Source: a virus
Taxonomy: Duplodnaviria; Heunggongvirae; Uroviricota; Caudoviricetes
Direction: 5' to 3' (one strand)
IMG/VR virus record: IMGVR_UViG_2909303794_000003
DNA: 10,545 nucleotides
In this document: positions 1 through 10,545 of the stretch, piece after piece
How positions within the stretch are numbered: position 1 is the first letter of the stretch
Layout: every line of letters begins with the position of its first letter
The notes under the pieces: model-generated
Databases searched by the model: none
What the model saw: the letters and a program-made list of their open reading frames with translations, nothing else
What the model was told of the DNA's origin: nothing
Program-made: the position numbers and the translations under genes

Positions 1-378
1 ATGACCGTATCAAAACGTGGCCGTGTGCCAAAAACAATCAAAGAAGCCGTACAAGAGCAGTTCAGTCGCATGGGGGAAAGCTACTATGCGAACATCAAGT
101 GGGCGAAATCAGTTAATGCCCATTACTTCAAGGTCATTCGGGAATCGGATCAGCCAGAACCGATTTTCTACACCTTCTCAGTAATTGATGAAGAGATACA
201 TTATACATATTTTGACGTGAACACCTTTGAAGCAACTCAGCTATCGTTAGCTTGCTCAGAGGATGCGTTCTTTCAATTCATGTTTAGGTGTGATCTACCG
301 TTAGACTTCGATGCATTTACCGAAATTATGCGTTTGATCTCATTGCATGGATTAGATGTCACTGCCTTTTATAAATAA
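1..378 (+). CDS. hypothetical phage protein, 125 aa
   Basis: ATG at 1, stop TAA at 376-378, uninterrupted ORF co-directional with its neighbours. Basic N-terminus (SKRGRVPK, loosely AT-hook-like). No family recognised by eye. Upstream signals lie outside the window. Confidence 0.6.
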   Translation: MTVSKRGRVPKTIKEAVQEQFSRMGESYYANIKWAKSVNAHYFKVIRESDQPEPIFYTFSVIDEEIHYTYFDVNTFEATQLSLACSEDAFFQFMFRCDLPLDFDAFTEIMRLISLHGLDVTAFYK

Positions 379-391
379 GACATTATATCAA

Positions 392-437
392 CTCCTATTT
401 TTGTTAGTCGTGATAAATAAGACTGTAAAAATAGGAG
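392..437 (+). promoter_or_regulatory. RNA hairpin sequestering the Shine-Dalgarno of the 446-625 ORF
   Basis: Perfect 11-bp inverted repeat CTCCTATTTTT (392-402) / AAAAATAGGAG (427-437) with a 24-nt loop. The right arm contains most of the AGGAGGG SD (433-439), which lies 6 nt before ATG 446. The left arm begins 14 nt after the upstream stop codon. No T-tract follows, so it does not look like a terminator. Confidence 0.4.
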
Positions 438-445
438 GGTTGATT

Positions 446-625
446 ATGACTTGGCTCAGTAATGTACTCATTGAAGTACTCGCAACTATAATTTATATGT
501 TTGTGCTATTTCCATGTTGGATAGTACTGCATCTTTGTTTTATGGTTTTGGTAGTATTACTGCTACCATTTAAGATTCCAGCTATAAATAGATATGTAAT
601 GACAAAGATGAAACGCCAAAAATAA
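446..625 (+). CDS. small hydrophobic membrane protein, 59 aa (two predicted TM helices, basic C-terminal tail KMKRQK)
   Basis: Internal ATG at 446 of track ORF 356..625, preceded by a strong SD AGGAGGG. The 356 start would overlap the upstream gene and has no SD. Sequence is MTWLSNVLIEVLATIIYMFVLFPCWIVLHLCFMVLVVLLLPFKIPAINRYVMTKMKRQK. A terminator lies downstream. Confidence 0.55.
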   Translation: MTWLSNVLIEVLATIIYMFVLFPCWIVLHLCFMVLVVLLLPFKIPAINRYVMTKMKRQK

Positions 626-662
626 ATATGGTATAATATCACTATAATTCCTCCAATAATTT

Positions 663-687
663 GCCCCAATTATTTGGGGTGCTTTTT
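663..687 (+). terminator. rho-independent terminator candidate
   Basis: Stem CCCCAA (664-669) pairs with TTGGGG (674-679), loop TTAT, followed by TGCTTTTT (680-687). It lies 38 nt after the stop of the 446-625 ORF. Confidence 0.55.
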
Positions 688-729
688 GTGTGGAAGAAAA
701 TCAGAAAAGTTTAACAAAAGGATATTGTT

Positions 730-882
730 ATGAAAGAAAAGAAAACGATTAGTGTTGGAGTGAGATTAAATCCTACACAAGAAGAAATACTAAAATCACT
801 TATAGAATGTGGTAAGGCTACTACGATTAGTTCAGCCATTCAGTATCTGATACATCAGTATGCGATTTTAGGTAGCAAGTAA
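730..882 (+). CDS. ribbon-helix-helix (CopG/Arc/MetJ-like) DNA-binding protein, 50 aa; absent from the supplied ORF track
   Basis: ATG 730 preceded by AAGGA (717-721); stop TAA at 880-882. Translation by hand: MKEKKTISVGVRLNPTQEEILKSLIECGKATTISSAIQYLIHQYAILGSK. The layout is an N-terminal beta-strand (TISVGVRL), helix A (PTQEEILKSLIE), a turn (CGKA) and helix B (TTISSAIQYLIHQY), which is the classic RHH pattern. Confidence 0.55.
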   Translation: MKEKKTISVGVRLNPTQEEILKSLIECGKATTISSAIQYLIHQYAILGSK

Positions 883-888
883 GGGTTT

Positions 889-938
889 GGTACTTTCACT
901 TTAGAAAAGTACTGGCAGTACTTCAGGATGAAGTACTT
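889..938. repeat. operator-like cluster of AGTACT-core palindromes
   Basis: GGTACT at 889-894. A 17-bp palindrome AAGTACTG-g-CAGTACTT at 907-923. A self-complementary 8-mer AAGTACTT at 931-938. This gives four RGTACT cores in 50 bp, between the RHH gene stop and the next start codon (956). Confidence 0.45.
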
Positions 939-955
939 ATTTTCAAGGAAGAAAT

Positions 956-991
956 ATGAAGAAGGAAAAAAGAAATGACCTAAAAGGTCAG
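956..991 (+). pseudogene. 5' stub of a phage ORF truncated by IS2
   Basis: SD-like AAGGAAG (945-951), then ATG 956. Twelve codons (MKKEKRNDLKGQ) run directly into the IS2 end, whose first triplet TAG is in frame. Confidence 0.3.
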
Positions 992-1033
992 TAGACTGGC
1001 CCCCTGAATCTCCAGACAACCAATATCACTTAA
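992..1033 (+). repeat. IS2 left terminal inverted repeat (IRL)
   Basis: TAGACTGGCCCCCTGAATCTCCAGACAACCAATATCACTTAA. It is an imperfect match to the reverse complement of 2282-2322, sharing the blocks GCCCC, TCCAGACA and TATCACTTAA. Confidence 0.9.
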
Positions 1034-1082
1034 ATAAGTGATAGTCTTAATACTAGTTTTTAGACTAGTCATTGGAGAGCAG

Positions 1083-1448
1083 ATGATTGATGTCTTAGGA
1101 CCGGAGAAACGCAGACGGCGTACTACACAGGAAAAGATCGCTATTGTTCAGCAGAGCTTTGAACCGGGAATGACGGTCTCCCTTGTTGCCCGGCAACACG
1201 GTGTGGCAGCCAGCCAGTTATTTCTCTGGCGCAAGCAATACCAGGAGGGAAGTCTTACTGCTGTGGCCGCAGGAGAGCAGGTCGTTCCTGCCTCTGAACT
1301 TGCTGCTGCCATGAAGCAGATTAAAGAACTCCAGCGCCTGCTCGGCAAAAAAACGATGGAAAATGAACTCCTTAAAGAAGCCGTTGAATACGGGCGTGCA
1401 AAAAAGTGGATAGCGCACGCGCCCTTATTGCCCGGGGATGGGGAGTAA
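1083..1448 (+). CDS. insC: IS2 OrfA (InsC), HTH DNA-binding / regulatory protein, 121 aa
   Basis: ATG 1083 ([53 protein letters not shown]...), stop TAA at 1446-1448. The sequence is recognised as IS2 InsC. The GTG at 1038 given in the track is an upstream extension into IRL. Confidence 0.95.
1400..1406 (+). promoter_or_regulatory. IS2 programmed -1 ribosomal frameshift motif A6G
   Basis: AAAAAAG at 1400-1406 lies near the end of insC, where the insD frame (-1 relative to insC) opens. It produces the OrfAB (InsCD) transposase in IS2 and the IS3 family. Confidence 0.7.
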
Positions 1449-2311
1449 GCTTAGTCAGCCGTTGTCTCCGGGTGTCGCGTGCGCAGTTGCACGTAATTCT
1501 CAGACGAACCGATGACTGGAAAGATGGTCGCCGCAGCCGTCACTCAGATGATACGGATGTGCTTCTCCGTATACACCATGTTATCGGAGAGCTGCCCACG
1601 TATGGTTATCGTCGGGTATGGGCGCTGCTTCGCAGACAGGCCGAACTTGATGGTATGCCTGCGATCAATGCCAAACGTGTTTACCGGATCATGCGCCAGA
1701 ATGCGCTGTTGCTTGAGCGAAAAACCGCTGTACCGCTATCGAAACGGGCACATACTGGCAAAGTGGCCGTGAAAGAAAGCAATCAACGATGGTGCTCTGA
1801 CGGGTTCGAGTTCCGCTGTGATAACGGAGAAAAACTGCGAGTCACGTTCGCGCTGGACTGCTGTGACCGTGAGGCACTGCACTGGGCAGTCACTACGGGC
1901 GGCTTCGACAGTGAAACAGTACAGGACGTCATGCTGGGAGCGGTGGAACGCCGCTTCGGCAACGAGCTTCCGGCGTCTCCAGTAGAGTGGCTGACGGATA
2001 ATGGTTCATGCTACCGGGCTAATGAAACACGGCAGTTTGCCCGGATATTGGGGCTTGAACCGAAGAACACGGCGGTGCGGAGTCCGGAGAGTAACGGCAT
2101 AGCAGAGAGCTTCGTGAAAACGATAAAGCGTGACTACATCAGTATCATGCCTAAACCAGACGGGTTAACGGCAGCAAAGAACCTTGCAGAGGCGTTCGAG
2201 CATTATAACGAATGGCATCCGCATAGTGCACTGGGTTATCGCTCGCCACGGGAATATCTACGGCAGCGGGCCAGTAATGGGTTAAGTGATAACAGGTGTC
2301 TGGAAATATAG
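1406..2311 (+). CDS. insD: IS2 OrfB (InsD), DDE transposase catalytic domain, 301 aa
   Basis: GTG 1406 to TAG 2309-2311. The DDE triad context is intact ([32 protein letters not shown]). The sequence is recognised as IS2 InsD with scattered substitutions relative to the K-12 copy as I remember it. Confidence 0.95.
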
Positions 2312-2322
2312 GGGCAAATCCA
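2282..2322 (+). repeat. IS2 right terminal inverted repeat (IRR)
   Basis: TTAAGTGATAACAGGTGTCTGGAAATATAGGGGCAAATCCA, which is the reverse complement of TGGATTTGCCCCTATATTTCCAGACACCTGTTATCACTTAA. Confidence 0.9.
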
Positions 2323-2323
2323 A

Positions 2324-2628
2324 CTTGCTTTAGGGGGCTTCCTTAAAGATGCACAGATGAATATTACACTCGTTATCCTGAATCCCTATAACAGTACTGT
2401 ATTGTACTCCATGCTGATGTTCTCAGGATTTGTTGATTACATTCAGGCAGTAGCCGATCCAAATGAAAAAACGAATGAAATGACAGTTTACGTGAATAGC
2501 ATTTATAAGAAGCTGGACAGACAGCCACCACTAATTGCTGCCAATTCAGTATATCAATCTCTCTATAAAGGGGATGAATACTTTAGTTTATTAGGACAGG
2601 TGAATCAGGATCAAACGTGGAGATACAA

Positions 2629-2632
<4 letters not shown>
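2324..2632 (+). pseudogene. probable 3' remnant of a phage tail gene truncated by the IS2 event
   Basis: The reading frame is open from the IS2 junction (first full codon 2324) to TGA at 2630-2632. The ATG at 2357 has no convincing SD. The stop overlaps the next start (ATGA), which is typical of tail-operon coupling. No family recognised. Confidence 0.45.
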
Positions 2633-6220
<3,588 letters not shown>

Positions 6221-6221
<1 letters not shown>

Positions 6222-6520
6222 TGGCACAGGGTTTACAATGCTGGGATGCATCTGGACGATTAATTGTCGATATTGGTGATTACAACATGCGGTACATGGG
6301 ATCAGTCAATCTTAATGTATCGGCTGGTAGTACTACATCATGGAATGTAGCCTGGTCGGGTATGCGTCCAACGGGTTGGTTGGCAGTAATGCGAGTGAGT
6401 CAGTACTGGAATGAGTTTTACTGTATTCCGGGTACTAACGCTTTCACCGTTCAATATCTTCCAGTGAGTGGCGTTTATGCCCAAACATTAACATTCGATA
6501 TATACAAATATGACGTGTAA
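6221..6520 (+). CDS. hypothetical tail-associated protein, 99 aa (paralogue of the domains in 6529-7176)
   Basis: ATG 6221 overlaps the J-like stop (TAATG); the track's GTG 6215 is less likely. N-terminal motif GLQCWDASGRLIVD and later YCIPG are shared with the next gene. The composition is beta-rich. Confidence 0.7.
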
Positions 6521-6528
6521 GGATCACT

Positions 6529-7176
6529 ATGTCAGGTTTTCAGGTTTACAATTCAGCAGGTGCTCTTACGATAGATTCCGATAATAAATCGGTCGTAATG
6601 AGTTCCGTTAAAGCAATGGGCACACTCTCAGATACAGGGTATTACCTCATTAACAGTGCTTTTGGTAATGGAAGTACGTTGGGGTATCTGCCTCTAAATT
6701 TCTTCCCCAATACGGGACTACGCTGGTTCCAGCTACAGACAAATGGAAAGTACTGTTTTCCCGGCTCGGCAATGTTCGAGGCAGGTTCAGGGCGGTTCAT
6801 GCTCTCCAGTAATACCACGGCTCTTACATCGGGCTATCTCGATGTGTATAACAGTGCTGGAACATTGATCTGGTCTGCTGCCAGTGCGGGTACAATGCCA
6901 CGTATTCAGGGTTTCCTTACCGTGCCATCCTCTCATGATCTCGGTACTGCCTTGACGCTTACGACGAGTTTTGCCGATCCGTGGATATGCATTAGTCAGT
7001 GTCCGGGCAACATATCCGATGATGGCGGCACAGTTGGCTATTCCGGCATTCTCATTAAAAGGAATAGCAGTACTTCATTCTCTTTACAGTATGTGAATAA
7101 GAACCAGAAGGCATATCGACAGGCAATGGGGAACAGCGGATTTCAAATTGCTTTAGCAAGTTTCACTGGTTATTGA
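6529..7176 (+). CDS. hypothetical tail-associated protein, 215 aa, two tandem copies of the same ~100-aa domain
   Basis: AGGA lies 6 nt before ATG 6529. GFQVYNSAGALTID...YCFPG in the first half, and YLDVYNSAGTLIWS...QCPG in the second half. Confidence 0.75.
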   Translation: MSGFQVYNSAGALTIDSDNKSVVMSSVKAMGTLSDTGYYLINSAFGNGSTLGYLPLNFFPNTGLRWFQLQTNGKYCFPGSAMFEAGSGRFMLSSNTTALTSGYLDVYNSAGTLIWSAASAGTMPRIQGFLTVPSSHDLGTALTLTTSFADPWICISQCPGNISDDGGTVGYSGILIKRNSSTSFSLQYVNKNQKAYRQAMGNSGFQIALASFTGY

Positions 7177-7213
7177 TATAAATACTCATAATAACAATAA
7201 TAAGGCATAATGT

Positions 7214-7486
7214 ATGGATTTCGGTACTATTGTTGCTCTTGTTATCGCTGGCCTTGGTTTTCTTTATACGATATTCCGTGACAGTTCTTCTGATACTGAA
7301 GATTTACTCACGCGAGTTTCGCAAATTGAAGCAAAGATACAACTGCACAGTAGCAGTATAGACCGCCTCGAAACAGAGCAGGATGAAATGAAGAAGACAT
7401 TACGTAATCTCGAAGATCAAATTCATCAACTGGATTTGAAGATTGAGCGTATTCTGACAATTCTCGAAAAGACAAAAGGGGCATAA
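7214..7486 (+). CDS. membrane-anchored coiled-coil protein, 90 aa (one N-terminal TM); possibly lysis-related
   Basis: ATG 7214 with AAGG upstream. TM segment FGTIVALVIAGLGFLYTIF is followed by a heptad-like helix (LLTRVSQIEAKIQLHSSSIDRLETEQDEMKKTLRNLEDQIHQLDLKIERILTILEK). It is convergent with the lysozyme gene. Function is inferred only. Confidence 0.7.
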   Translation: MDFGTIVALVIAGLGFLYTIFRDSSSDTEDLLTRVSQIEAKIQLHSSSIDRLETEQDEMKKTLRNLEDQIHQLDLKIERILTILEKTKGA

Positions 7487-7495
7487 TGCCCCTTT
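7475..7495. terminator. bidirectional rho-independent terminator
   Basis: Stem AAAGGGGC (7475-7482) pairs with GCCCCTTT (7488-7495), loop ATAAT. T-rich sequence follows on the plus strand (GTTATTTTA) and TTTTGTC follows on the minus strand. It lies exactly between the convergent stops at 7486 (+) and 7497 (-). Confidence 0.75.
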
Positions 7496-7496
7496 G

Positions 7497-7940
7497 TTAT
7501 TTTAATTGATTATTCATATCTCTTACCCGGTTTGGCGTTTGCCTGTACCATAATGAATCAACGGACTCACGCCGCACACCATCACGATCTCCCGCCTTTG
7601 CTGCTGCCAGTAGTTTTCTGAATTTACTTACGCCATTCACCCCTAACTGAAAAATCATGATGATCAGATAGTCCTCAATATCGGCAGGAAGAGTACCCAA
7701 ACGTAATGTACTTAATCCTGTCCGGGCAACTGCAATATCTTTATCAAGTAAAGTCTCTGCCTCATTCGGGGATAATCCAGTACTGAAAATTTCCCCTGAT
7801 TTGATTAAATGTCCATACCCGACAGTGCTGAATCCCAATGAGTCAGAGTATGGGAAGAACTTTCCATTACGGAAGTACCCCAATTTTGTCTGATAGGCAA
7901 TCGTGCCTTTATATTCCTTAAGTCTGCTTTTTAAATCCAT
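7497..7940 (-). CDS. endolysin, T4-type lysozyme (glycoside hydrolase family 24), 147 aa
   Basis: The E-8x-D-5x-T type catalytic context (LKEYKG ... YSDSLGFSTVGYGH) and the C-terminal SLWYRQTPNRV resemble T4 lysozyme (WYNQTPNRA). There is no N-terminal TM or signal, so it is holin-dependent. Confidence 0.9.
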   Translation of the reverse strand: MDLKSRLKEYKGTIAYQTKLGYFRNGKFFPYSDSLGFSTVGYGHLIKSGEIFSTGLSPNEAETLLDKDIAVARTGLSTLRLGTLPADIEDYLIIMIFQLGVNGVSKFRKLLAAAKAGDRDGVRRESVDSLWYRQTPNRVRDMNNQLK

Positions 7941-7981
7941 TCACTAAATACCTATATAAATTACATATGGGTATTTAGTGA
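7941..7981. repeat. perfect 12-bp inverted repeat filling the divergent intergenic region
   Basis: TCACTAAATACC (7941-7952) and GGTATTTAGTGA (7970-7981), separated by 17 nt of AT-rich spacer (TATATAAATTACATATG). The left arm abuts the lysozyme start codon (7938-7940). The right arm overlaps the first base of ATG 7981. Confidence 0.7.
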
Positions 7982-8430
7982 TGAGAATTAATAACAACTG
8001 GACGATGTTCGAACCAGAACAATGGGATATCAAGGAAGTAAATGAAGGTCTGTACTGTTCATTTGTGTACTTAATTGAATTTCCCGAAACGGGGGAGTAC
8101 TACTTCGGGAAGAAGCAGATATATAAAGGTATCAAAGATATTTCAAACCTTAAGGGTACTTCAACGGAAAGCAACTGGCTGGATTATACGGGCAGCAGTA
8201 AAAGTGTAAATGCCATGATTGATTCAGGTATGGAGTACTCAAAAAGGATTCTGTACTGCTTTAAAACTGATGCTGAAGCCACTTTAATTGAAACTGCATT
8301 GATTAGCTATTACGGCTTACATCCCGACAATCTCAATAAAGCCATTCTGTGTAAATCCCGATTGCCAAAAAATCGAATTGAATTGTTCCGGGTGCTACAG
8401 AGTTTGATCGAAATGTTGGGCGTGAGGTAA
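7981..8430 (+). CDS. GIY-YIG nuclease-domain protein, Seg-like, 149 aa
   Basis: ATG 7981 (the track's GTG 7978 is one codon upstream). FVYLIEF...GEYYFGKK (the GIY/YIG pair), then W-x-DYTGSSKSVNAMIDSG...KRILYCF...AEATLIETALI...NLNK. This matches the Y-x-GSG...L..AI..G...IL...EA..E..I layout of phage Seg/GIY-YIG homing endonucleases. There is no obvious C-terminal DNA-binding module. Confidence 0.65.
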   Translation: MRINNNWTMFEPEQWDIKEVNEGLYCSFVYLIEFPETGEYYFGKKQIYKGIKDISNLKGTSTESNWLDYTGSSKSVNAMIDSGMEYSKRILYCFKTDAEATLIETALISYYGLHPDNLNKAILCKSRLPKNRIELFRVLQSLIEMLGVR

Positions 8431-8432
8431 AT

Positions 8433-9002
8433 ATGATTAGAGGCAGAATAACAGGGCTGAATAACGCAACAACCTATCTTAATACTACAGGTCAACGTCT
8501 TGGACGTGACTTTCAGAATGAAATAATCAAAAGGTCAAGGGCGTTATCAGCCAAAATGCAAATGGACTTAAACAATGCCGTCGATAAAGGAGCAGTACCT
8601 TTCACTCAGCGTTCCATTCTCTTTATGTACAAGAAAGTTGGTAATGGAGTTCGCAGTACTATTCTCGTGAAGGATCTACAAGCGAAGTACTTATATGACG
8701 TACTTGTTGAGGAAAAAGCCCTTGATAAGTTTGTACCAACGAGTAAGGCACGTCTTGATCGGTTCGGTAACATTGCAGGGTTGAAACGTAATCTATCAAA
8801 TGGGCGTTATAAGGTCATTAAAGGGAAGAATGGTAAAGAGCGATTGATTGATACCAGCCAGAAGAAGAAAGAAAAGCGAGTAATTGGATTACGTGAAAGT
8901 AAGAAACGTAAAATCATTTATGATTTCTATGCAGAAGCAGAGAAGGGGGCAAGACTTGTTCTCGCAGGGATACAGGGATCGTTTGTTATAAAAAAGGGAT
9001 AA
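8433..9002 (+). CDS. hypothetical protein, 189 aa, lysine-rich C-terminal half
   Basis: GAGG lies 5 nt before ATG 8433, and the gene is tightly packed with its neighbours. The N-terminus (MIRGRITGLNNATTYLNTTGQRL...) vaguely resembles HK97 gp10-type head-tail proteins, but I cannot support that call. Confidence 0.7.
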   Translation: MIRGRITGLNNATTYLNTTGQRLGRDFQNEIIKRSRALSAKMQMDLNNAVDKGAVPFTQRSILFMYKKVGNGVRSTILVKDLQAKYLYDVLVEEKALDKFVPTSKARLDRFGNIAGLKRNLSNGRYKVIKGKNGKERLIDTSQKKKEKRVIGLRESKKRKIIYDFYAEAEKGARLVLAGIQGSFVIKKG

Positions 9003-9003
9003 T

Positions 9004-9315
9004 ATGAATTTTGAAGAACACTATGGTGAACTTACGAGTGAGATAACGCTGAATGGTACTATACCAGATGGTAATAGTATGCCAATCAACAAGTGCTTTC
9101 TCGGAAAGAAGTTCCAGAAGCAATTGAAGAAAGCAGATATACAGATTGAGTGCTTTATGAATATCTGCTACGAGAAAAAACAAAGTTTTAAAGATGGTGA
9201 AGTACTCACATGGTCACTACAGGGTGATGAAATGGATGTGTACTTAATCGAAAGTAAAAGGTTATTTGTAAAGGGAAAGCACTTTTGGGGATATTGTGTG
9301 GGGATCATTGAATGA
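9004..9315 (+). CDS. hypothetical protein, 103 aa
   Basis: AAGGGA precedes ATG 9004, which lies 1 nt after the upstream stop. The stop overlaps the next start (ATGA). No family recognised. Confidence 0.65.
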   Translation: MNFEEHYGELTSEITLNGTIPDGNSMPINKCFLGKKFQKQLKKADIQIECFMNICYEKKQSFKDGEVLTWSLQGDEMDVYLIESKRLFVKGKHFWGYCVGIIE

Positions 9316-9602
9316 TTGGAATGATAATTGATTTAATCAAAACTGGATTGGGCTTCTTCCAGAAAAAAGAACAAAGCAAACAGGAACTGGACGCACAGAA
9401 CAGTCACGAGCAGAACGAGATCACACTTGAAGAAACACGTAAGGGCTTCACGTGGCGACAGGGTTTAGGCTGGGTACTAACGTTCATCATTCTATGGAAC
9501 TACGTCATTGTGCCAGTACTGGCATTGTGTGGTGTAGTACTTCCCATAGTTCCACTTGATGAAATATGGAAAGTACTGATCATCTTAATCGGTGGGAGTT
9601 GA
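9312..9602 (+). CDS. holin-like protein of the GTA-type 3-TM holin family, 96 aa
   Basis: N-terminal amphipathic and charged segment (KKEQSKQELDAQNSHEQNEITLEE), then FTWRQGLGWVLTFIILWNYVIVPVLALCGVVLPIVPLDEIWKVLIILIGG. The W-R-x-x-x-G-W plus hydrophobic helices pattern is as I recall it for the Pfam family named Holin of 3TMs, for gene-transfer release. Confidence 0.55.
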   Translation: MIGMIIDLIKTGLGFFQKKEQSKQELDAQNSHEQNEITLEETRKGFTWRQGLGWVLTFIILWNYVIVPVLALCGVVLPIVPLDEIWKVLIILIGGS

Positions 9603-10283
9603 TTTTGTCTCTCTAAACAATACTCGCCATGAAGTAAGCCATGTTGAAGGGAGGATTTGGGTAAGTGCGAAGGCTGGTATGAAACTCAAATTATGAAATT
9701 CCCAATTCTTCTTGCGTGCCATACCACTTACATCTTGACATATGTTAATCATTTTATCGCTAATGATAATAAAGTTGTAGTAATGTGTTATACATTGTTC
9801 AAGTTCTTTAGACTTGTCTGGATGTACTTCAATGTTCCAAACTCGTAATATATCTAATTGCGATTTCAATTTAATCAGATGATCTTTATAATCAGCATGC
9901 AAGTCATTTACCTTAGAGTTTTTGCTTTGGTACTCTTTATCGGTGATGTTAAGATCTTTATTTCCTAACATTTCATACATATCATTGATATAAGTATGTA
10001 ATATTTCCGCCTTTACTTTCGCTTCAATAAAGTAACTGATATAAACGTTTGCTTGTTCAAAACCTTTTTCATTAAGTTTTGAATCTAACCATCTATAAAC
10101 TTTAAAAACTGTGATGAGTGCTATTACTGCCATTATAGTATCCATGATTGCTGATGTAGTAGAGCTATCATATCCATGAAGTAATAGTAAATCGGTGTAA
10201 ATTGGTATTAATGCACCAATAGCAAGACATGCAATATGTGAAAATCTTATTTCATTTCTGATTTTTTTTAAAATCACTTTCAA
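9585..10283 (-). CDS. AT-rich two-TM membrane protein with ~165-aa helical C-terminal domain, 232 aa; candidate moron (exclusion/abortive-infection-like)
   Basis: The only long ORF in this stretch. It starts at TTG (10283) or GTG (10277, 9 nt from an AGGGA SD-like box), and the first internal Met is about 47 codons in. TM1 is FSHIACLAIGALIPIYTDLLLL and TM2 is AIMDTIMAVIALITVFKVY. Seven 60-nt lines counted inside it gave 27-32% G+C. No family recognised. Confidence 0.7.
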   Translation of the reverse strand: MKVILKKIRNEIRFSHIACLAIGALIPIYTDLLLLHGYDSSTTSAIMDTIMAVIALITVFKVYRWLDSKLNEKGFEQANVYISYFIEAKVKAEILHTYINDMYEMLGNKDLNITDKEYQSKNSKVNDLHADYKDHLIKLKSQLDILRVWNIEVHPDKSKELEQCITHYYNFIIISDKMINICQDVSGMARKKNWEFHNLSFIPAFALTQILPSTWLTSWRVLFRETKSTPTD

Positions 10284-10305
10284 AGCATCCCTATGAAATT
10301 ATTGG

Positions 10306-10330
10306 AAAGCCTGTATATAGCACAGGCTTT
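10306..10330 (-). terminator. terminator-like hairpin between the two minus-strand genes
   Basis: AAAGCCTGT (10306-10314) pairs with ACAGGCTTT (10322-10330) with a 7-nt loop. It starts 6 nt downstream (minus sense) of the stop of the 10336-10545 gene. The A/T tracts form part of the stem and the trailing U-tract on the minus strand is weak. Confidence 0.45.
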
Positions 10331-10335
10331 TATTG

Positions 10336-10545
10336 TTACCAATCCCAATCAATAGTAGTATCCAAATCACGCAAGTTAGTATGTTCTGTGCGAGTCGCTA
10401 CGAGAACAACATCACCAGTTTCTTTCGAAACAATATCAAAAACTTCAATTTCCGTTTGGCCCATTGTACCTTTCGTTCTAAAACTCTTTCTGACGTAAGT
10501 GTATTTTTCTTTTGGATAATTACTTTCAAATAATGCTTCATTCAT
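10336..10545 (-). CDS. hypothetical protein, 69 aa
   Basis: The ATG sits at the window edge (10545-10543), with stop TAA at 10338-10336. Sequence is MNEALFESNYPKEKYTYVRKSFRTKGTMGQTEIEVFDIVSKETGDVVLVATRTEHTNLRDLDTTIDWDW. G+C is about 39% (two lines counted), like the backbone. The upstream region is not visible, so the start is unverified. Confidence 0.55.
   Translation of the reverse strand: MNEALFESNYPKEKYTYVRKSFRTKGTMGQTEIEVFDIVSKETGDVVLVATRTEHTNLRDLDTTIDWDW

Follow-up and report, generated by a model that had tools for sequence, protein, structure and literature searches.

Why would a phage genome accumulate a short palindrome? This question is raised by IMG/VR record IMGVR_UViG_2909303794_000003, a stretch of 10,545 nucleotides (nt) of tailed-phage DNA (in the following, the window), in which an earlier note made from the sequence alone had pointed to a strong excess of the hexamer AGTACT and of its core GTAC. 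The window represents a defective prophage from a hitherto undescribed family of temperate Enterobacterales siphophages and contains a copy of the insertion sequence (IS) IS2. Its backbone comprises positions 1-991 and 2323-9602 (8,271 nt), and IS2 (992-2322) and the terminal part (9603-10545) were counted apart. A recount reproduced the numbers of the note exactly: 32 copies of AGTACT are found in the backbone (5 in 1-991 and 27 in 2323-9602) and none in IS2 or the terminal part, and GTAC occurs 88 times in the backbone (8 and 80) and three times each in the other two. Base composition alone predicts 2.58 AGTACT and 29.9 GTAC for the backbone (Poisson p = 5e-24 and 6e-18), in agreement with the expectation of about 2.6 copies and the roughly 12-fold enrichment estimated before. 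The excess is real, arises at the level of DNA, is specific to the lineage and is constrained at individual sites. Taken together, the results presented here demonstrate a weak but pervasive DNA-level force which creates and keeps GTAC across the whole core genome of the family; the host chromosome, IS elements and cargo of recent acquisition are not affected.

All tetramers and hexamers of the backbone were counted. Of the 4096 hexamers, none is over-represented as strongly as AGTACT (z=18), which is followed directly by its own extensions CAGTAC and GTACTG, and among the tetramers GTAC ranks first (z=10.6). The AGTACT sites are spread over the three codon phases (9, 12 and 8-9), with additional intergenic copies, and the phases which the note had given for single sites are correct. 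Synonymous-codon shuffling of the 13 backbone genes yielded 6.0±2.2 AGTACT compared to 29 observed in coding sequences (z=10.4) and 45.9±5.0 GTAC compared to 84 (z=7.6), and shuffling of the codon order gave expectations of 3.3±1.8 and 38.3±5.6, respectively. Markov models of orders 1 to 4 predict 2.0, 7.1, 14.4 and 29.7 AGTACT in comparison to the 32 observed; a 2.2-fold excess is thus still present at order 3 (p=4e-5) and has disappeared at order 4. The agreement at order 4 is circular and uninformative because the 5-mers on which this model is trained mostly come from AGTACT itself, which provides 32 of the 45 AGTAC and 32 of the 58 GTACT in the backbone. The excess therefore withstands the third-order and the synonymous null models, and its loss under the fourth-order model carries no weight.

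The same trait was detected in more than 50 relatives. In the 49 IMG/VR loci among them (L011-L059), GTAC is enriched 1.8- to 3.7-fold throughout, and a single genome harbors about 100 AGTACT and about 300 GTAC. For quantitative analyses, ten diverged segments consisting of phage DNA only (L011, L014, L017, L022, L030, L032, L036, L040, L049 and L053) were combined to a pooled set of 165 kb. This set contains 1624 GTAC with 570 expected (2.85x) and 533 AGTACT with 55 expected (9.7x). Coding and non-coding DNA are enriched alike, with 2.87x and 2.75x for GTAC and 9.66x and 9.99x for AGTACT. The claim that no single codon pair can explain the excess is thus supported twice, by the synonymous shuffle and by the equally strong enrichment outside of genes.

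The trait ends where the prophage ends. In L001, the E. coli prophage which contains the right part of the window, 42 AGTACT are located in about 15 kb of prophage compared to one in 5.5 kb of adjoining host DNA. The pooled E. coli flanks (22.8 kb) are depleted rather than enriched in GTAC (52 vs 88.8 expected, 0.59x) and contain two AGTACT (5.8 expected), so that the density of AGTACT in the phage exceeds that of the host flank about 25-fold and the excess is specific to the phage. Prophage ends also delimit the trait in L006, L007 and L010, and a relative from Phytobacter, whose J protein is only 58% identical, shows the same excess up to the prophage/host junction. The trait is also missing from a group II intron and from IS elements which lie inside relatives. 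The only genes at expectation are low-GC cargo genes on the opposite strand, including those at 9585-10545 of the window. The absence of AGTACT from the 943-nt minus-strand tail of the window, as described in the note, was confirmed, but its orientation is not the cause, since the minus-strand lysozyme gene is enriched; the block lacks the motif as recently acquired cargo.

A closer look at the sites reveals that the excess of AGTACT is real but that GTAC is the conserved core, with A at position -1 and T at position +1 preferred independently of each other. In the pooled set, the base preceding GTAC is A in 55%, C in 10%, G in 16% and T in 19% of all cases; at position -2, C is mildly favoured (0.28) and G is disfavoured (0.14). 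The product of independent flank preferences predicts 491 AGTACT compared to the 533 found, and therefore each half-site contributes separately. Both strands are used equally (AGTAC 891, GTACT 909). The gaps between sites follow a geometric distribution with a mean of 101 bp and a coefficient of variation of 1.09, and the search for periodic or phased spacing suggested in the note revealed nothing beyond the 3-nt codon period. Outside of GTAC, the sub-words GTA (1.07x) and TA (0.91x) are near expectation in the family data, and after masking of GTAC with two flanking positions on each side CAGT (1.10x) and AGTA (0.95x) are as well; the enrichment of the half-sites CAGT/ACTG, considered as a possible signal of its own, disappears with this masking. 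Since the sub-words are at expectation outside the motif, the GTAC-centred palindrome is the primary signal. The strength of the implied force is modest, amounting to ln 2.85 = 1.05 per GTAC and about 0.6 per flank.

The flank preference differs among lineages and the GTAC excess does not. In L054, GTAC is enriched 2.8x, but only 4 AGTACT are present where 16 would be expected from its own flank frequencies (p=4e-4). AGTACT has thus been purged with GTAC being kept, and it follows that GTAC is the conserved unit and AGTACT is selectively removable. As a side observation, the packaging/head region of L070 (10001-14696), which belongs to the L070/L071 lineage, contains 0-1 AGTACT per kb and 10-13 GTAC per kb; AGTACA is as common as AGTACT in this lineage, and the flank preference varies between lineages and between regions.

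Constraint on individual sites was measured in alignments of L011 with 23 relatives of 72-90% identity. GTAC is kept at 63% of its sites, with a mean of 38% for all tetramers, and ranks third of 251 behind only words containing ATG. Third codon positions are identical in 75.1% of cases inside GTAC and in 59.6% outside, and the value is higher for each of the four bases. The ±1 flanks are constrained as well (0.80 and 0.74 vs 0.65 and 0.67) and the ±2 positions are not. The earlier note's proposal of a cause at the DNA level is borne out by three properties, namely equal enrichment in coding and non-coding DNA, strand symmetry, and elevated conservation of third codon positions in the sites. 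A force this modest per site suggests either a benefit which accumulates with the density of sites or a directional process of conversion.

This accumulation takes place in genomes which otherwise purge palindromes, among them nearly all GC-containing ones of 6 bp. GCGC is absent from the window backbone (14.5 expected) and from the pooled set (212 expected), and many copies of it are present in IS elements and host flanks. It is at zero in 38 of the 49 IMG/VR loci, non-zero counts being mostly from loci of raised G+C content which probably include host flank. In the pooled set, 17 six-base palindromes are at zero, including the SmaI, SacII, XhoI, SacI, SphI, BamHI, KpnI and SalI sites, and about 28 are at or below 0.24x, with AGTACT as the sole outlier of this length toward excess. 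Even GTAC-centred hexamers are affected: GGTACC is missing where flank frequencies predict 42 copies, CGTACG occurs once instead of 16 times, and both are purged throughout the family. The tetramer CTAG is missing from the window backbone (0 vs 29.9) and from several relatives and is near expectation in others (L030, 66 vs 68). Its pattern is lineage- or host-dependent and looks host-driven, in contrast to GTAC and GCGC, which behave as family-wide traits. Palindrome purging is likewise seen in the T-even phages RB49 and RB43; both have no AGTACT at all (15.9 and 15.3 expected), with GTAC at 0.57x and 0.80x, and AGTACT is therefore a liability for other coliphages. The avoidance in the family is as extreme as in these virulent phages, which is unusual for a temperate phage. 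The complete lack of GCGC in phages from many host genera suggests that either a GCGC-specific nuclease of the phage, to which its own genome is immune, or an agent common to all hosts is at work.

Among the three causes offered in the note, a binding site for a phage factor fits best, a target of DNA modification has been weakened, and for a mutational k-mer bias no signature was found. Our preferred reading, to which we assign a probability of roughly 0.4, is that the sites are read by a phage-encoded factor of two-fold symmetry and that the benefit scales with the number of sites. Most simply, this reader would be a sequence-specific DNA-binding protein, and the benefit growing with site number could consist in marking, coating or loading onto phage rather than host DNA. 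Each single site would then matter little, which would fit the modest strength per site and the geometric spacing. A more specific form of this reading, which we regard as doubtful, holds that GTAC is a genome-wide "self" code, in which about 300 sites per 32-kb genome would let a symmetric reader coat, silence or protect the phage DNA. The cost of such a code would be exposure to restriction enzymes cutting GTAC or AGTACT, from which one lineage may have retreated by giving up AGTACT. The absence of GCGC may be a mirror image of the code, with a phage nuclease sparing its own GCGC-free genome.

The only concrete candidate for the reader, of the "self" code as well, is an early protein of 166 amino acids (aa) which combines an HNH_3-like segment with an AP2 domain; its role is a guess that is probably wrong. 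The assignment of the AP2 fold is based on a three-stranded sheet packed on a helix and on the signature GV...Y.A...G.(Y/F).T.EEA..AY. In the window, only the first 12 codons of the gene (MKKEKRNDLKGQ) remain at 956-991 on the plus strand, where the gene is cut off by IS2 and thus inactivated in this copy. The densest AGTACT cluster of the window is located in the intergenic stretch 890-937, directly upstream of the ribosome-binding site and the ATG (956) of this gene. It consists of a GTAC at 890 and AGTACT at 908, 917 and 932, spaced by 9 and 15 bp, and contains a GTACTTT...AAAGTAC inverted repeat. The cluster is kept in L010 and L061-L063 and partly in L064, and L065 retains only the two AGTACT next to the gene. 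Cluster and gene co-occur in L010 and L061-L065, and both are absent in L066. Directly upstream of the cluster, a family-conserved open reading frame (ORF) of 50 aa (MKEKKTISVGVRLNPTQEEILKSL...) is located at 730-882 on the plus strand, with homologues of 60-100% identity in L061-L066 and an identical copy in L061. A role of its product as ribbon-helix-helix operator protein was considered and rejected, as the resemblance is by eye only and distant members do not share the downstream cluster; no support for any fold was obtained from Pfam, PHROG or PDB. Scans of the early proteins identified no repressor in the early region.

Several points weigh against a phage-encoded reader. L066 carries no AP2-like gene in the 10.9 kb examined, yet GTAC is enriched 1.9x and AGTACT 3.8x. 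Distant AP2 homologues occur in the unrelated phages L068 and L069, which show no GTAC excess (0.53x and 0.65x). The relatives used for the conservation analysis share their phylogeny, and the statistics are thus pseudo-replicated with inexact p-values, although the directions of the effects are consistent. Finally, conservation of silent sites fits selection and biased repair alike, and both the uniform enrichment in coding and non-coding DNA and the weak strength per site would also be produced by the latter.

Such a biased mutation or repair process intrinsic to the phage is the main rival, albeit an unlikely one. An enzyme analogous to Vsr would convert near-cognate words into GTAC until a neutral equilibrium is reached. 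Besides the two points just mentioned, geometric spacing and the cargo genes which so far lack an excess are in accordance with this explanation. Furthermore, the range of CTAG from zero to normal by lineage indicates that repair-type signatures shape these genomes, and several of the early genes code for nucleases (an HNH protein, the HNH-like/AP2 protein and, as a weak match, an Mrr_cat-like protein). However, the transition neighbours of GTAC are not depleted in the pooled set, with ATAC/GTAT at 0.94x and GCAC/GTGC at 1.12x, and no gene for a Vsr-like enzyme or a C5-methyltransferase was recognised in the annotated parts, where several early proteins have no assignable function. In addition, we know of no repair system that gives a GTAC bias, and the graded, independent A/T flank preference resembles the recognition profile of a protein, though a repair enzyme would share this property. 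Deamination of GCGC, GCAC or GTGC into GTAC was rejected as a source because GCAC and GTGC are not depleted, and about 30 missing GCGC per 20 kb cannot supply about 120 excess GTAC per 20 kb. Still less probable, and largely refuted, is a cause at the RNA level, such as selection for a self-complementary AGUACU in mRNA or for a codon-pair preference. Nearly all genes are located on one strand and a palindrome is identical in transcripts of either strand, which would suit this idea; against it stand the identical enrichment of non-coding DNA, the use of three codon phases, the survival under synonymous and codon-order shuffling, and the symmetry of the flank preference, for which an RNA-binding or translational signal gives no reason. 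The possibility that the excess merely follows from base, di- or trinucleotide composition, from other words being avoided or from the E. coli background can practically be dismissed: the fourth-order Markov model does yield 29.7 of 32 AGTACT and the second-order model 66.8 of 88 GTAC, but these models were trained on motif-dominated counts, the sub-words are at expectation outside of GTAC, and models of orders 1 to 3 as well as the codon-based ones fall short of the AGTACT excess. A host origin is contradicted by the depleted host flank and by the end of the trait at prophage boundaries and inside IS elements.

The remaining rival, modification of GTAC by a phage enzyme, was followed beyond the window as proposed in the note, and a methyltransferase gene was found. 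It encodes 236 aa, begins 46 bp past the window end (L001 14063-14773) and is a conserved feature of the right genome end in the family. An NPPF motif is invariant in the protein, whose fold is that of an N6-adenine amino-methyltransferase (predicted local distance difference test, pLDDT, of the model 88.5). This fold is about equally near to DNA enzymes (HsdM, MmeI, M.TaqI) and to RNA N6-methyladenosine (m6A) enzymes (METTL5, Erm, KsgA), and the protein lacks a target-recognition domain; DNA-methyltransferase models of PADLOC match the protein at 5e-11. Among T-even phages, full-length homologues of 49-56% identity are widespread. Many T-even phages without hydroxymethylcytosine (hmC) share the gene, such as RB49, RB43 and phages of Klebsiella, Aeromonas and Sinorhizobium, and database records label the protein variously as DNA methyltransferase, PrmC or rRNA methylase. 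If the enzyme modified GTAC, more sites would mean more modified bases, and the conservation of the gene, its motif, the confident model, the relation to DNA enzymes, the PADLOC match and the presence of an adenine in GTAC speak for this possibility, which we nevertheless consider improbable, more so than biased repair although less so than an RNA-level cause. RB49 and RB43 carry homologues and yet have no AGTACT and no excess of GTAC, and L054 has purged AGTACT with its methyltransferase intact. Adenine methylation within GTAC would block enzymes of the KpnI type, but GGTACC and CGTACG are purged, so that the GTAC core does not behave as protected. For these three reasons, the methyltransferase is an unlikely reader of GTAC. 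The equal proximity to RNA enzymes and the lack of a target-recognition domain also count against modification, which moreover would account for the tolerance of sites and not for their enrichment.

A search of the literature for over-representation of GTAC or AGTACT, for methylomes and for binding sites in phages returned nothing relevant, and no report was found of a phage family which generally eliminates palindromes yet enriches and conserves a short one. The enriched word can be compared with known systems. Stoperators of Cluster A mycobacteriophages are reportedly the sites of the gp71 repressor of phage L5; they are asymmetric sites of 13 bp, present in about 25-35 copies per genome, mostly intergenic and oriented with transcription. 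The resemblance lies in a lineage-specific DNA word which is scattered over the whole genome of a temperate phage far above chance. In L5, the stoperators are read by a phage DNA-binding protein. In contrast to stoperators, the word of the family is a palindrome of 4-6 bp with about 100-300 copies and equal density in coding and non-coding DNA. Chi (RecBCD), the uptake sequences of DNA uptake (USS/DUS) and the FtsK-orienting polar sequences (KOPS) are chromosomal words of 7-12 nt, each with its own reading machinery, that are asymmetric and biased in strand or orientation. They share the strong replicon-specific over-representation in comparison to Markov and codon-aware null models and, by analogy, may share a weak effect per copy, a cumulative benefit and the separation of "self" from other DNA. 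Unlike them, the word described here is a strand-symmetric palindrome of 4-6 bp confined to a phage lineage which otherwise purges palindromes.

Restriction-site avoidance is seen in the same genomes for GCGC and about 28 other palindromes, as in RB49 and RB43, whereas GTAC (2.85x) and AGTACT (9.7x, and 12x in the window) deviate in the opposite direction, with AGTACT purged in L054. The Dam/GATC system is similar in its palindrome of 4 bp occurring about once per 100-250 bp and in a conserved amino-methyltransferase encoded by the element; the difference is the indirect evidence against a methyltransferase targeting GTAC from RB49, RB43, L054 and GGTACC/CGTACG. The skews caused by Dcm and Vsr in E. 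coli (very short patch, VSP, repair) have a parallel in the repair-type k-mer signatures visible here (CTAG by lineage), but the neighbours of GTAC are not depleted. AP2 modules are said to occur in HNH homing endonucleases of phages and cyanobacteria, and the apicomplexan AP2-G reportedly binds a GTAC core; AP2 domains can read words of 4-6 bp, including GTAC. The 166-aa protein of the family likewise pairs an HNH_3-like segment with an AP2 domain, but in contrast to homing endonucleases it is far smaller, has a fixed genomic position and is not mobile. A mimic of the SlmA-binding site (SBS), whose 12-bp consensus is GTGAGTACTCAC, was rejected: no site within one mismatch exists in the 165 kb, the outer six positions show 4.7 mismatches on average as in random sequence, and G is disfavoured at -2.

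Genomes of the family to which the window belongs measure about 30-36 kb. Their left end carries a large serine recombinase, and their right end adjoins mipA in E. coli; intact examples beside mipA are present in GCA_054478815.1 and GCA_012051545.1. Relatives are common in Enterobacterales, including Escherichia, Klebsiella, Citrobacter, Enterobacter, Salmonella and related genera. By look-up of exact proteins, positions 2323-10545 were placed with 99.9% identity in a prophage abutting mipA-yeaE-yeaD-gapA of E. coli, and they match L001 5795-14017. Among 5,426 complete E. coli genomes, IS2 is the only part of the window that matches, and the backbone has no close (megablast) match in 50,697 phage records. 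No cultured relatives were found; the closest sequence from a cultured phage is a distantly related module in the DCP80 record (terL 35%, J 30%), and this module has no GTAC excess (85 vs 81). This record (L005, PQ671644.1, Escherichia phage, 141 kb) is labelled Straboviridae yet opens with the siphophage-like module (1-22500), and the assembly may be chimeric. The module has a different, equally extreme palindrome profile (GATC 0 vs 81 and CTAG 11 vs 81 expected).

The left backbone segment of the window (1-991) corresponds to the early region, which lies beside the serine-recombinase end in relatives. It contains eight GTAC and five AGTACT, the latter at 475, 523, 908, 917 and 932. Positions 413-991 are 100% identical to L008 and L009 and 76% identical to L010 1150-1755, just downstream of the recombinase gene of L010. 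IS2, an element of the IS3 family with a length of 1331 bp, follows at 992-2322 on the plus strand; it is 99% identical to IS2 copies in 4897 of the 5426 E. coli genomes. No target-site duplication is present, the flanks being GTCAG on one side and ACTTG on the other. To the left of IS2 lies the early region, and to the right the sequence continues at L001 5795, inside a tail gene of 207 aa (remnant ORF 2357-2632). Since the flanks come from the early region and from a tail gene and no target duplication exists, the prophage is regarded as defective by an IS2-associated deletion. Judged from the relatives, this deletion would comprise roughly 20-22 kb, joining the early region to the tail gene, and it implies the loss of the packaging, head and most of the tail genes.

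The right backbone segment (2323-9602) carries tail-tip, lysis and accessory genes, namely DUF6950, a J-like tail tip protein (1067 aa), phrog_4524, lysozyme, a GIY-YIG SegE-like protein and small unknowns. Its 80 GTAC include AGTACT at 2393, 2660, 2837, 2928, 3245, 3352, 3540, 3734, 4680, 4963, 5271, 5386, 5728, 6060, 6329, 6402, 6749, 7069, 7779, 8096, 8234, 8655, 8686, 9201, 9515, 9536 and 9572. The gene of the GIY-YIG SegE-like protein (150 aa; 7978-8430, plus strand) has a fixed position in L001-L004, and L007 has the corresponding ORF of 149 aa. A fixed position is unusual for a gene of the homing-endonuclease type, and the protein may serve the phage, for example as a nuclease. At the right end, the cargo block (9585-10545, minus strand, GC 32-33%) consists of two genes of 232 aa and, up to the window end, 69 aa, for which no PHROG or PADLOC match was obtained; it has no AGTACT, and its three GTAC equal the expectation. 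L010 carries a different gene in this place, which is thus a variable slot.

Mobile elements abound in the relatives, with IS66 in L003 and IS3, IS5, ISSen4 and a group II intron in L010. In L071, a gene for an OLD-family nuclease (AAA and TOPRIM) is located in the early-region cargo slot at 8351-10171 on the minus strand, which suggests that these prophages carry anti-phage defence cargo.

Phage genomics regards short palindromes as liabilities, and the family described here obeys this rule for nearly all of them, yet it accumulates and conserves one. In this way, positive selection or directed conversion acting on a DNA word of only 4-6 bp gives a clean signal, which is measurable at silent sites and in non-coding DNA and implies a sequence reader or a repair activity which has not been described before. 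In practical terms, the k-mer signature of high GTAC and zero GCGC can be used to recognise this prophage family and to date its cargo genes. As the known analogues are longer, asymmetric and oriented and no prior report was found, the finding is new within the functional over-represented oligomers and extends this group; it could be categorically new if a self-marking code were demonstrated. Such a "self" code, if true, would represent a new cis-acting genome architecture in phages and positive selection for a palindrome of the restriction type.

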